Positions 4,110 to 55,346 of a stretch of 64,000 nucleotides of DNA are shown in pieces. The stretch comes from Nannocystales bacterium. Its GTDB lineage: Bacteria; Myxococcota_A; Polyangia; Nannocystales; Nannocystaceae. The translations under genes were made by a program, and so were the position numbers. The notes below the pieces were generated by a model. The model saw nothing but the letters and a program-made list of their open reading frames with translations. It was not told the DNA's origin and searched no databases. Location: positions 95,403 to 159,402 of the forward strand of contig JBOEGF010000027.1 of the NCBI GenBank assembly GCA_050633305.1, given 5' to 3'. The stretch's first letter is position 1, and each line of letters begins with the position of its first letter.

Positions 4110-5009
4110 GTGCGTCGACGTCGCTTCTTAATCTGGGCAAGCCAGGGTGCTGGGGCCTGCGTCGCGGGCGGAACCGCCTCTGAACCCGCTCCAACACCGT
4201 CCGCACCTCCCGCACCGCCCGCCGCCGAACTCGACCCGCTCGAGGCGGCGGCGGAGCAGCTTCGCGCGCGGAGAGCAGACGATGGATTCACAATCCTCGT
4301 CGAAGCGCCGTTCGTCGTCGCGGGGAACGAGGCCCCACAAGACGTCCAGCGCCGGGCAACGCACACCATCGGCTGGGCCACGGCGCTGCTCAAAGACGCC
4401 TACTTCGAACTCGACCCCCCGGACGCGCCGACGGTTTGGCTGTTTCGAGACGACGCGAGCTACCGCCACTGGGCCAAGCGCTTGTTCGACGACGAGCCCG
4501 ACACGCCCTACGGGTACTTCACAGCCGAACACAACGCTCTGGTGATGAACATCAGCACGGGGGGCGGCACCCTCGTGCACGAACTCGTGCACCCGTTCAT
4601 CGACACGAACTTCCCTGGGTGCCCATCGTGGTTCGATGAGGGTCTCGCGTCGCTGTACGAGCAATGCGGAGAGCGAGACGGGAAGATCGTCGGGTTCGAG
4701 AACTGGCGTCTGCCCGGCCTCCAGGCCCAACTCCGAGCCGGCACCAACCCTACGTTCGACACCCTCACTCACACCTCCCGAGACGACTTCTACGCCGATG
4801 AGACCGGAGTGCACTACGCCCAAGCCCGCTACCTGTGCTTCTACTTGCAGCACGAGGGCCTGCTTCGGCGCTTCTACCACGCCTTCCATCAGGCCTCCGC
4901 TTCGGACCCCTCCGGCTACGAGACACTGAAGTCGGTGCTTGGCACGGACGACATGGAAGCCTTCGAGGCGACCTGGAAAGGCTTCGTACTGTCCTTAGAA
5001 CAAAGCTGA
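4110..5009 (+). CDS. Putative secreted zincin-like metallopeptidase (DUF1570/peptidase MA-like)
   Basis: HELVH (HExxH) followed by PSWFDEGLASLYE and Y-AQARYLC; RRRRF N-terminus. Confidence 0.6.
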   Translation: MRRRRFLIWASQGAGACVAGGTASEPAPTPSAPPAPPAAELDPLEAAAEQLRARRADDGFTILVEAPFVVAGNEAPQDVQRRATHTIGWATALLKDAYFELDPPDAPTVWLFRDDASYRHWAKRLFDDEPDTPYGYFTAEHNALVMNISTGGGTLVHELVHPFIDTNFPGCPSWFDEGLASLYEQCGERDGKIVGFENWRLPGLQAQLRAGTNPTFDTLTHTSRDDFYADETGVHYAQARYLCFYLQHEGLLRRFYHAFHQASASDPSGYETLKSVLGTDDMEAFEATWKGFVLSLEQS

Positions 5010-5063
5010 GTGTTCTCGTCATCCCGCTTGCCCGTGGCGCCCCCGCGCCCGGATACTCGTGTC

Positions 5064-5504
5064 GTGTCCCGTGTCCTGAGCATCGCACTCCTCGGCGTAT
5101 GCAGCGCGTGCCAGCTCTGCGACGAGAACGCCGACTGCGAAGGCGGGCGCTTCAACGTGTGGGTCGCGACGTCGGATAACGCCCCACTGCCCGAAGGCAG
5201 TTTTGCGCTCACCGTCACCCCCGATGTCGGAGCCGTGCTTCACGGCGAGTGTATGGTGAGCAGCCAAGGAACCCGCGCAGAGTGTTCCGGAGACGCCGTC
5301 GCCGGCTCCGTGAACCGACGCGATGTTTTCACGTTCCTGCGAATCTCCCAAGACCCGACCTTCGCCACGCTCGTCGGCGTGGGCCTCACCCACAATGGCG
5401 TCGTCGTGGACGAACGCGAAGATGAAACTCTGGACTTCTACCGCGGGGACTCCTGCGACAACGACTGCGGCGTCGCCGACGTCCAGCTCCAACCGCTGCC
5501 ATGA
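5064..5504 (+). CDS. Hypothetical Cys-patterned lipoprotein (paralog of 6194..6613)
   Basis: GTG 5064 (start uncertain, ORF open from 5010); signal peptide and CSAC lipobox; Cys spacing aligns with the 6194 protein. Confidence 0.65.
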   Translation: MSRVLSIALLGVCSACQLCDENADCEGGRFNVWVATSDNAPLPEGSFALTVTPDVGAVLHGECMVSSQGTRAECSGDAVAGSVNRRDVFTFLRISQDPTFATLVGVGLTHNGVVVDEREDETLDFYRGDSCDNDCGVADVQLQPLP

Positions 5505-5524
5505 CCGCCCTCGAGCGGTCTCGG

Positions 5525-5607
5525 TCCGTGGAGCAGGACTCGAACCTGCACGCGCCGAAGCGCCGTGGTTTTACAGACCACTACCCTGCCAATCGGGTAT
5601 CCCACGG
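5525..5607 (-). tRNA. tRNA-Tyr(GTA), atypical: C1-G72, A8, long variable arm
   Basis: Reverse complement folds CCGTGGG/TCCACGG acceptor, ACCC/GGGT D stem, GTGGT-CTGTAAA-ACCAC anticodon arm, GCGC-TTCG-GCGC variable arm, GCAGG-TTCGAGT-CCTGC T arm, discriminator A. Confidence 0.85.
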
Positions 5608-5612
5608 GTGTG

Positions 5613-5694
5613 CGGAGGGTGAGGGAGTCGAACCCCCAGGCCGTTTTGGCCCACCGCTTTCAAGGCGGCTTGGCGTGCCCATGCCGAACCCTCC
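5613..5694 (-). tRNA. tRNA-Ser(TGA), atypical D arm
   Basis: GGAGGGT/ACCCTCC acceptor, GCCGC-CTTGAAA-GCGGT anticodon arm, GGCC-AAAAC-GGCC variable arm, GGGGG-TTCGACT-CCCTC T arm, discriminator G. Confidence 0.75.
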
Positions 5695-5696
5695 AT

Positions 5697-5781
5697 CGGA
5701 AGATGAGGGAGTCGAACCCCCGCTGATTTTCACCAGACCGACGCTTTCCAAGCGAGTGCCTTACCGCTCGGCCAATCTTCC
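5697..5781 (-). tRNA. tRNA-Ser(GGA)
   Basis: GGAAGAT/ATCTTCC acceptor, GCCGAGCGGTAAGGC D arm, loop TTGGAAA, CTGGT-GAAA-ATCAG variable arm, T arm, discriminator G; top two anticodon-stem pairs mismatched. Confidence 0.8.
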
Positions 5782-5795
5782 AGTTGCTCACAAAG

Positions 5796-5880
5796 CGGAG
5801 GGGGCGGGATTCGAACCCGCGCTAACGATCGCTAGACCTCGGCGTAGCAGGCCGGCACCTTTCCACTCGGTCACCCCTCC
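5796..5880 (-). tRNA. tRNA-Ser(GCT)
   Basis: GGAGGGG/CCCCTCC acceptor, ACCGAGTGGAAAGGT D arm, loop CTGCTAC, CTAGC-GATC-GTTAG variable arm, GCGGG-TTCGAAT-CCCGC T arm, discriminator G. Confidence 0.85.
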
Positions 5881-5983
5881 AGGTTGTCTCCGCACCCAGA
5901 CAGACGCGGCTGCCAGCTGGGCGTCACGCTGAGCCACAGCGACACGACACGGCACGGCACGGGGGCAGCACGACTGCGATGCG

Positions 5984-6094
5984 CTATCGAGAGGCTCGAC
6001 TGCCCACCGCAGACGCGGAATACGACGGACTCGACTGCACATCGGCGATCGGGGTCGGGAGTCGTACGGCGTTGCGTTGCGCAGGAGCGTTCAT
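5984..6094 (-). CDS. Putative 36-aa Ser-rich leader peptide of the tRNA array (not in ORF track)
   Basis: ATG 6094 to TAG 5984: MNAPAQRNAVRLPTPIADVQSSPSYSASAVGSRASR; lies between candidate promoter and first tRNA. Confidence 0.4.
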   Translation of the reverse strand: MNAPAQRNAVRLPTPIADVQSSPSYSASAVGSRASR

Positions 6095-6106
6095 CGGTTC
6101 CGCGTC

Positions 6107-6134
6107 AACCTAGCGCCCGGAGGAGGACCGTCAA
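6107..6134 (-). promoter_or_regulatory. Candidate sigma70-type promoter for the leader/tRNA array
   Basis: TTGACG (6134-6129)-N16-TAGGTT (6112-6107) followed by GC-rich GACGCGG, resembling stable-RNA promoters. Confidence 0.5.
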
Positions 6135-6193
6135 GGCGAAATTGGAACCCGTACTCGCTTGCGGACCCCGACCCGGCGATCGAGACTCGGAGA

Positions 6194-6613
6194 ATGCTCC
6201 GAGCCGTGCTCTTGCTGGCCCTCGCCTGCTGTGGGGTCGGATGCCGCCCATGCAACGAGCGCTGCGTCGGCGGAATGCGGATTTCGCTGGAGGCCGACCC
6301 GGTGCTCTCGGATGGCCGGTACGACGTGGTCGTCACACTGGACGGCGGCACGGCTCTCGAAGCGAGCTGTACCATCGCGGAGCGGGGCACCGTCGCGACC
6401 TGCGAGGGCAGTCTCCACGCTCTCGGGGAAGACGGTTCGCAGGACCTCAACGTCCTGCGACTCTCAGAGCCCGCTTCGGGGGCCGAACACGTCGAGGTGG
6501 AGGTGTACTGGAACGACACCCTCCGCATCGACGCGGATGTCCAACTCGATCAGGAACCGAGCGAGTCCTGCAACCCGCACTGTGCCTGGGCGAGCGCAAC
6601 CCTCCCCTTGTAG
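6194..6613 (+). CDS. Hypothetical Cys-patterned lipoprotein (paralog of 5064..5504)
   Basis: RBS GGAGA, ATG 6194; signal peptide with GVGC lipobox; aligned Cys pattern. Confidence 0.7.
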   Translation: MLRAVLLLALACCGVGCRPCNERCVGGMRISLEADPVLSDGRYDVVVTLDGGTALEASCTIAERGTVATCEGSLHALGEDGSQDLNVLRLSEPASGAEHVEVEVYWNDTLRIDADVQLDQEPSESCNPHCAWASATLPL

Positions 6614-6624
6614 TTCGGTCGACG

Positions 6625-7617
6625 CTACTGCGCCGCCAGCCCGCTCGACGGCACGGGGACCTCCGTGAGCCTCACAACCGCCTCGAACCCCGCCTCCTGC
6701 AGAGGAACGTCACCGAACTGCTCGAAGCTGTCCTGCAACCCCATGGGTCCGACGAGCTTCTTCGGGTGCGCGGTCGCGTAGAACAGCCCGTTGGTGTCGT
6801 CGTCGAACTCGAGCGCGTCGACATACCGTCTCGCGGCGACCTCCAGCGACCCGGCCATGCCCACCATGGGGCCCAGAGTCTTCATGAACGCATTCAGCAT
6901 CTTCATACCGAACCCCGCGCTGCGAGCGAAGTTGCTGCTCGGAGCCGAACCTGGGGACACTGCGTTGACCGTCATACCGCCGGGCAACCGTCGCCCCAAG
7001 GCTGCAGCCCACCATGCGACAACGAGCTTCGCCGTGACGTACTCCTGCATGTTGGCGAAGCCTTCCTGAGCTTCGGTCTTCGCCAAGGCCACGATCGCAG
7101 CGGTGGAGTCACCATCGAACTGGTCGCGCGCGACGGCGGCAACATCGTGCAGCGGCGTCCCGGGTATCGTTCCGCGAGCCCCTTCGGACCCAGCAATGAC
7201 AATCCGGGCATGGGAGGACAGGAAGCCGGCCTCCCACAGGCGCATCGTCAACACATGGTGCCCGACCAGCGTCGAGGCCCAGGTGATTTCGACGCCGTCC
7301 GAGTTGTACTGCGGCTGCGAACTCGATGCGCCGGCGTTGAGGACGAGTCCATCGATGGGCGTGCCACGTTCGATCAGCTCGTCCGCTGCAGCGCGGGCAG
7401 TCTCCCTCTCAGAGGTGTCGACGGCCAACGTCGCAAAGACATCCTTGCCGACGCGCTCCCGTAGCGCGGCCCGGGCCGCCTCCGCCTTTTCGACGCTGCG
7501 GCACGCCAGGATGACGGTGCCCCAACCGGCCTCGGCAAGCTGCGCTGCGGCTTCAAATCCGACACCAGAGTTCGCGCCCGTGACGAGCACTGTGTTGTTC
7601 TTTCGAGTCTGAGTCAT
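6625..7617 (-). CDS. Short-chain dehydrogenase/reductase (retinol dehydrogenase-like)
   Basis: TGANSGVG, LNAG, YVTAK (YxxxK), NAVSPG. Confidence 0.9.
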   Translation of the reverse strand: MTQTRKNNTVLVTGANSGVGFEAAAQLAEAGWGTVILACRSVEKAEAARAALRERVGKDVFATLAVDTSERETARAAADELIERGTPIDGLVLNAGASSSQPQYNSDGVEITWASTLVGHHVLTMRLWEAGFLSSHARIVIAGSEGARGTIPGTPLHDVAAVARDQFDGDSTAAIVALAKTEAQEGFANMQEYVTAKLVVAWWAAALGRRLPGGMTVNAVSPGSAPSSNFARSAGFGMKMLNAFMKTLGPMVGMAGSLEVAARRYVDALEFDDDTNGLFYATAHPKKLVGPMGLQDSFEQFGDVPLQEAGFEAVVRLTEVPVPSSGLAAQ

Positions 7618-55268: not shown

Positions 55269-55340
55269 GGCCCCATCGTTCAGCGGTTAGGACGCGAGGT
55301 TTTCATCCTTGAAACCAGGGTTCGATTCCCTGTGGGGTCA
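55269..55340 (+). tRNA. tRNA-Glu(TTC)
   Basis: GGCCCCA/TGGGGTC acceptor, CGAGG-TTTTCAT-CCTTG anticodon arm, CAGGG-TTCGATT-CCCTG T arm; CCA not encoded. Confidence 0.95.
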
Positions 55341-55346
55341 CTTTTT

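Follow-up and report, generated by a model that had tools for sequence, protein, structure and literature searches.

Among leader-peptide attenuators, thrL and ilvL are multivalent. We use the term leader-peptide attenuator as it is defined in the available part of 10.1101/834739. Surplus tRNA genes are described in L-arrays, for which the available text of PMC8421152 proposes the role of an inducible backup set; a term search of that text returned neither "leader" nor "attenuation," and it calls the regulation of single tRNA species in bacteria largely unknown. One L-array, the trn operon of Anabaena PCC 7120, is reported to have a repressor, TrcR (PMC10272220). Our literature search, which covered a minority of subscription papers, found no report of leader-gated tRNA genes.

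Here we describe a block of Ser and Tyr tRNA genes from a Nannocystales bacterium, lying in a window (the whole stretch of DNA that was analyzed) of 64,000 nucleotides. From sequence comparison, we put a probability of about 60% on the reading that this block is one of a set of dispersed spare-tRNA blocks under ribosome-sensed transcription attenuation at a hairpin without a U-tract.

Four accessory tRNA genes for Ser and Tyr

The genome is 11.0 Mb in size, with 66% GC, and is 92% complete. A preliminary description of this DNA proposed four tRNA genes on the minus strand with spacers of 14, 2, and 5 nt, long variable arms, no encoded CCA, and discriminators G, G, G, and A. ARAGORN and the sequence agree with the arrangement and the spacers, and inspection of the sequence confirmed the remaining features. 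Three of the four genes score above the Rfam RF00005 gathering score of 29 bits.

5796..5880, minus strand: accessory tRNA-Ser(GCT); ARAGORN, RF00005 56.0 bits, 58/88 identity with the housekeeping copy
5697..5781, minus strand: accessory tRNA-Ser(GGA); ARAGORN, RF00005 48.2 bits, 54/89 identity with the housekeeping copy
5613..5694, minus strand: accessory tRNA-Ser(TGA) with a noncanonical D arm; ARAGORN, below the RF00005 gathering score, 56/86 identity with the housekeeping copy
5525..5607, minus strand: accessory tRNA-Tyr(GTA) with C1:G72, A8, A73, and a variable arm; ARAGORN, 34.9 bits, 57/87 identity with the housekeeping copy

Housekeeping genes for Ser-GCT, -GGA, -TGA, and -CGA and for Tyr-GTA are present elsewhere in the genome. 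The block therefore does not hold the sole copies, and its accessory, non-housekeeping status, which had been proposed, is upheld. Because the same anticodons occur in housekeeping genes, the block adds no new anticodon. Accessory and housekeeping copies are 61 to 66% identical across all four anticodons. The missing CCA is not distinctive, as it is also absent from the four housekeeping Ser genes.

The anticodon stems have mismatches, C27.A43 in Ser-GCT and two in Ser-GGA. The determinants recognized by SerRS in tRNA-Ser are G73, G1:C72, G2:C71, A3:U70, and a paired variable arm, and by sequence the accessory Ser genes keep all of these. Eight other loci share the odd D arm of Ser-TGA. The block has orthologues with the same deviations, including the D arm and C1:G72; the deviations are therefore not random decay but are kept, as had been suggested.

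The tRNA-Tyr gene carries an unusual acceptor end. According to the parts of PMC9976931 and PMC5370408 that we consulted, C1-G72 is the archaeal and eukaryotic Tyr identity and G1-C72 the bacterial one, and human mitochondrial TyrRS ignores the 1:72 pair. C1:G72 and A8 were present in 31/32 distinct Tyr-GTA genes, a sample biased to accessory blocks and found partly with the present gene as query. G1:C72 is found in the housekeeping tRNA-Tyr of this genome and in leader-headed Tyr genes of another family. A second TyrRS was sought and rejected: the two PF00579 matches in this 92% complete genome are one bacterial TyrRS and one TrpRS. We also rejected C1:G72 as an escape from an AtaT-type acetylase, since the available text of PMC7595197 points the opposite way, with C1-G72 retaining more acetylation than G1-C72 in the tRNA context used there.

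Further tight accessory blocks of two to three genes each lie on other contigs of this genome (Pro/Gln/His, Leu/Leu, Lys/Asn, and Arg/Arg). A search for more accessory tRNAs in the genome with 319 queries gave six short weak matches and nothing else. The accessory tRNA-Leu(CAG) and -Leu(GAG), at L032:111-267 (G000:C47:18510-18666), are 76 nt long; their variable region measures 7 nt, which sets them apart from the class II Leu tRNAs of bacteria. A housekeeping-type tRNA-Leu with anticodon AAG lies at G000:C76:3-87, and Leu-GAG was called for the accessory gene alone. At G000:C32:152651-152730, a Gln/Glu-like tRNA body with an odd anticodon loop received an ARAGORN call of Asn(ATT). A degenerate tRNA-like element (L049, G000:C10:853171-853264) precedes the accessory Lys/Asn pair. 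Within the window, a housekeeping-type tRNA-Glu(TTC) at 55269-55341 has its own promoter-like site and a U-tract terminator.

Leader ORFs matched to their tRNA genes

The preliminary description overlooked a promoter-like site and a short ORF upstream of the block, as well as the membership of the block in a family-wide system. The features of this region are as follows.

6129..6134, minus strand: putative -35 hexamer TTGACG, from the sequence; TTGAC(A/G) at the same place in 13/13 members of the Ser/Tyr family
6107..6112, minus strand: putative -10 hexamer TAGGTT, 16 nt past the -35; found by a cargo-blind promoter caller, TAnnnT-like in orthologues
5984..6094, minus strand: leader ORF of 36 codons; orthologous ORF in 13/13 family members
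5974..6012, minus strand: predicted stem over the leader stop codon, a candidate antiterminator; 6012-6005 pairs with 5981-5974
5881..5983, minus strand: spacer of 103 nt from the leader to the first tRNA; without a U-tract terminator, fold z +0.6
5503..5520, minus strand: GC hairpin past the last tRNA, without a U-tract (-10.4 kcal/mol, 1 T in the tail); possible 3'-end role

The leader ATG lies 12 nt after the -10 hexamer of the putative promoter. A consensus promoter and terminator scan of 5000-6700 returned 0 sites, with TTGACG under its threshold. The last 18 codons of the leader include seven Ser codons and one Tyr codon (TCG AGT TCG TAT TCC TCT AGT TCT). The hairpin at 5503..5520 abuts the stop of a convergent gene (5010-5504). 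The neighboring genes are unrelated: DUF1592/DUF1552 genes, a short-chain dehydrogenase, a LysR regulator, and an acyl-CoA dehydrogenase. The two flanking genes, 5010-5504 and 6077-6613, are distantly paralogous to each other (27%); both begin with a Cys-rich, lipoprotein-like segment, and a Pfam search placed them in no family.

The Ser/Tyr block family has 13 members, each with a leader ORF of 33 to 39 codons, and the frame is open in 13/13. In two members, tRNA-Trp replaces tRNA-Tyr, and there the leader has zero Tyr codons and one Trp codon; the 10 members with a Tyr gene have 1 to 5 Tyr codons in the leader. There are two exceptions: a Tyr gene was not detected at L151, whose leader has four Tyr codons, and L159 lacks a Trp gene for the Trp codon in its leader. 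Comparison of the leader with its closest orthologue gave eight nonsynonymous and four synonymous codon changes. In a related strain, the 110 nt between leader and tRNAs are swapped for 80 other letters, with the promoter-leader region and the tRNAs kept; the gene downstream is the same gene, diverged. No shared operator was seen by eye in the 13 promoters. Flanking proteins match at just 1/13 orthologous loci. The distribution is patchy, with a match at 1e-9 in 19/72 genomes and in 2/6 other genomes of the genus. The GC content of the block resembles that of the host, and phage, plasmid, and viral (IMG/VR) collections gave no match to it.

A pattern of three closely spaced T-arms has matches in 32/72 genomes of the family Nannocystaceae. 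We collected loci by tRNA sequence alone, which gave 138 arrays; 11 with less than 350 nt upstream were dropped. Judged by cargo, 85 of the others are accessory blocks, and 42 are solitary genes or housekeeping clusters already recognized. A stringent promoter-plus-ORF caller blind to cargo detected leaders in only a minority of arrays and was replaced by a test of matched versus mismatched cargo. The score rates the last 25 codons of the best ATG ORF (15 to 70 codons) for a chosen set of amino acids and is computed in the same way for own and foreign cargo. With their own cargo, 58/85 accessory blocks scored at least 2 and 41 at least 3, and the own cargo ranked first in 65/85; foreign cargo reached a score of at least 2 in 1.1% of 2,813 pairings. 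In 10,000 rounds of cargo permutation, the number of matched blocks averaged 8.6 and never exceeded 20, against the observed 58. The single match in the housekeeping and single-gene class (1/42) stands at the front of an accessory Glu block. Matches were spread over 33/38 genomes and 29/46 cargo sets and covered all 20 amino acids. Since the genomes are kin, the P values are overstated, and the spread over cargo types weighs more.

A check independent of the score looked at TTGAC 30 to 75 nt before the ATG, which was present in 39/54 leaders versus 7/45 other ORFs in the same windows and 81/2000 random ORFs. Cognate codons end in A or T at a fraction of 0.38, compared with 0.20 among the remaining leader codons and 0.21 across the genome, a skew to rarely used synonyms. 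The match is specific to the frame (0.49 versus 0.14 and 0.14), partly by construction. Among blocks with Arg-TCT, Ser, and Gly genes, 7/7 leaders carry AGA or AGG close to their end, codons that could also serve pairing; among other blocks that include an AGR reader, AGR makes up 2/25 Arg codons. Among 14 metagenome matches, seven scored at least 2, three had visibly homologous leaders, and four had none or lacked upstream DNA.

The leader at the Ser/Tyr locus ranks its own cargo 1 of 35 cargo sets, with a modest score of 1.6. Matched leaders in the same genome score 7.1 (Pro/Gln/His), 2.5 (Leu), and 1.9 (Lys/Asn). The 27/85 accessory blocks that score below 2 include the Arg pair of this genome, with no matched leader and a score of 0.0; many of the 27 lie inside longer operons or have a leader more than 330 nt away (L097, recovered).

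We noted some further features of these upstream regions. The Arg-GCG/Arg-TCG pair (L032:558-707, G000:C47:18956-19107) has a good promoter-like site and no Arg-rich closed ORF; an Arg-rich frame before it lacks start and stop. Thr codons are present as well in the Lys/Asn leader (L049), whose block has orthologues that include Thr and Phe genes. In a set of 52 leaders, the final codon is Cys in twelve and Arg in eleven, whatever the cargo.

Tight tRNA triples occur in 62/301 genomes of the phylum. Among 49 phylum loci, four blocks, from three genomes of two other families, have a matched leader of rank 1. Housekeeping clusters and four long arrays in this sample had no matched leader; the leader test is weak for long arrays (those of four other genomes), whose cargo spans many amino acids. 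Two accessory arrays of at least 30 tRNA genes, L219 and L220 (G241 and G271), lie beside an EF-Tu-like C terminus, likewise with no matched leader.

At the level of sequence, these data show that leader content tracks cargo over many cargo types and that the leader is conserved, in frame, and promoter proximal. The sensor half of the proposed system is thereby well supported; the actuator half we infer. A stress-induced backup role for the Ser/Tyr block, as suggested in the preliminary description, would fit the leader found; the stress might be an anticodon nuclease, starvation, or an antibiotic.

The proposed switch and its rivals

In the proposed mechanism, a promoter-like site is followed by a short ORF rich in codons read by the downstream tRNAs, and this leader would be translated. 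When housekeeping tRNAs are lost, cleaved, or undercharged, a ribosome would wait at the Ser and Tyr codons, and its presence may alter the fold of the spacer and permit read-through into the spare tRNAs. Fast translation of the leader would let RNA polymerase stop in the spacer. The outcome would be a negative feedback loop for each codon group, topping up exactly the tRNAs that have run short. The weakest step is the stop signal, which in Nannocystaceae would be a GC hairpin acting without a U-tract and without Rho.

U-tract terminators were found in 2/52 leader spacers versus 3/156 random ones, and none was found at the Ser/Tyr locus. After housekeeping tRNA clusters of this genome they occur in 19/43 cases and after accessory blocks in 0/6. 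A rho gene was found in 0/72 Nannocystaceae genomes, near-complete ones included (control, 8/14), and the spacers showed no C>G skew beyond 1.19 in the first 15 nt; on these grounds we rejected Rho-dependent attenuation. In the four leader-headed blocks of other families, there is a hairpin with a U-tract, and a 5' arm could pair with the end of the leader (-15 to -20 kcal/mol, values given with no null).

The spacers as a set fold better than shuffles (median z -1.49 versus -0.27, P = 9e-6), and z is at or below -2 in 20/63 versus 3/60; the Ser/Tyr spacer has z +0.6. At this locus, the stop-codon stem and one spacer hairpin are the only helices upstream of the tRNAs kept in the centroid fold, and the stem with its inner helix reaches -31.3 kcal/mol (z -1.4, not significant). 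A general stem across the stop codon was rejected, as it did not exceed controls in three tests: 8.0 versus 8.1 bp of pairing in controls, a duplex z of +0.18, and a post hoc retest with 3/13 and 5/45 versus 7/80. In Glu/Asn blocks, a stem over the stop, read by eye, is kept in 8/8 with one compensatory change, and in some of them its 3' arm appears by eye to match the acceptor strand of the first tRNA. Leader-controlled, footprint-dependent misfolding of the first tRNA was also rejected (P = 0.85 in 42 blocks). An automated terminator/antiterminator test was positive in 5/58 and recovered 0/4 positive controls.

Locus L035 (G000:C18:127400-129500) is a separate case. Its repeats resemble Y RNA (YrlA, below the gathering score) and tRNA, and upstream of them are a promoter-like site, a leader ORF of 28 codons, and a GC hairpin carrying a U-tract. 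From these features it looks like a classical attenuator ahead of a Y RNA locus. For the protein downstream, a Pfam search with the first 225 aa gave no match.

The same sensor might drive another output. The position of the ribosome on the leader would then govern processing or decay of the tRNA precursor instead of transcription, with a stalled ribosome shielding the 5' end or hiding a nuclease site in the structured spacer. The lack of U-tracts and of rho, the structure of the spacers as a set, and the Glu/Asn stem with its 3' arm that in some blocks resembles the acceptor strand speak for such a mechanism. We nonetheless regard it as unlikely: the first tRNA does not generally fold in a footprint-dependent way, and a transcription terminator is used by the sister blocks of other families.

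Less probable still, the block could be an ordinary accessory array, controlled by its promoter as in Anabaena trn or weakly constitutive, with a leader that is an inherited remnant and gates nothing here. The modest score, the absence of a recognizable terminator, the nonsynonymous drift at the Ser/Tyr locus, and the Arg pair without a matched leader are consistent with this. Against a remnant speak a leader and promoter kept where the spacer is replaced, a frame open in all 13 members whose content follows the cargo, and 13 promoters that share no operator recognizable by eye.

The proposal of the preliminary description that the set is accessory and under selection is supported; its suggestion that the genes donate aminoacyl groups for nonribosomal transfer found no support. 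Supply of aminoacyl-tRNA to nonribosomal transferases, with C1:G72 and odd D arms keeping these tRNAs out of translation, would explain why noncanonical features are conserved and why the Tyr gene has a pair that is not the bacterial identity in the consulted parts of PMC9976931 and PMC5370408. We find it highly improbable: the 12 neighboring ORFs hold no transferase family, flanking proteins are rarely shared among orthologous loci (1/13), the blocks span the full set of 20 amino acids, and decoding is what a leader with matched codons points to. Just as implausible are decaying pseudogenes of a horizontally acquired array, suggested by lower Rfam scores (one below threshold) and the patchy distribution (19/72 genomes at 1e-9) and contradicted by the same deviations across genera, compensated stems, and conservation of tRNAs and leader while the spacer changes.

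Attenuation by a ribosome on the leader is thus our preferred reading for the Ser/Tyr block. A broader version, which we advance tentatively and hold at somewhat below even odds, is that Nannocystaceae possess a second, nearly complete, dispersed tRNA set. Every block would be leader-gated in its own codons, with a stop independent of both Rho and a U-tract, and recoded tRNA bodies (C1:G72 Tyr, short-arm Leu) would be charged by the single housekeeping synthetases. Such a set would form a codon-by-codon homeostat with an undescribed termination or processing step.

Comparison with known systems

If the preferred reading is true, a leader that tests the codons of its own downstream tRNAs would provide direct feedback on tRNA supply and could plausibly counter toxins that cleave tRNA, attack by phages, or starvation. 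The system is chromosomal and family-wide and covers 20 amino acids with cargo swaps, which makes it amenable to analysis block by block. It raises the questions of how attenuation could work without Rho or a U-tract and of how a bacterial TyrRS handles a C1:G72 tRNA. In the latter respect, the closest parallel is in CPR bacteria, which, as described in the available text of PMC5370408, likewise have a bacterial-type tRNA-Tyr body with a variable arm and the archaeal C1-G72. CPR genomes have an archaeal-type TyrRS according to the same text, whereas this genome has a bacterial TyrRS and a G1:C72 housekeeping tRNA-Tyr.

L-arrays such as Anabaena trn resemble the blocks described here in being tightly spaced supernumerary isodecoders with a patchy occurrence among relatives (PMC8421152, available text). 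The Ser/Tyr block shares with them the addition of isodecoders without a new anticodon; its four genes do not make it an outlier in gene number, by which L-arrays are defined. L-arrays are further characterized by horizontal spread and by a switch from silence in growth to induction under translational stress. Anabaena trn is a single 26-gene unit under promoter repeats in the consulted part of PMC8421152, whereas here there are mostly 2 to 10 genes per block, grouped by codon family, each block with its own leader. The mycobacterial polycysteine leader ORFs of the "Cys ribulon" (10.1101/834739, available part) likewise involve dispersed operons in a GC-rich host, coordinated through pausing of ribosomes at cognate codons, with no intrinsic terminator. 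Their output, access to a ribosome binding site, is inapplicable to tRNA genes.

With E. coli trpL and Salmonella hisL, the blocks share a layout of promoter, short ORF with cognate codons near its 3' end, and controlled genes, and, as in amino acid operon attenuators, one leader would sense several amino acids. Unlike trpL and hisL, Nannocystaceae blocks have no recognizable intrinsic terminator, and rho is absent from the genomes searched; we therefore do not class them as classical attenuators. Furthermore, the cargo of trpL and hisL is enzymes, whereas here it is tRNA genes, the decoders of the codons that the leader would sense.
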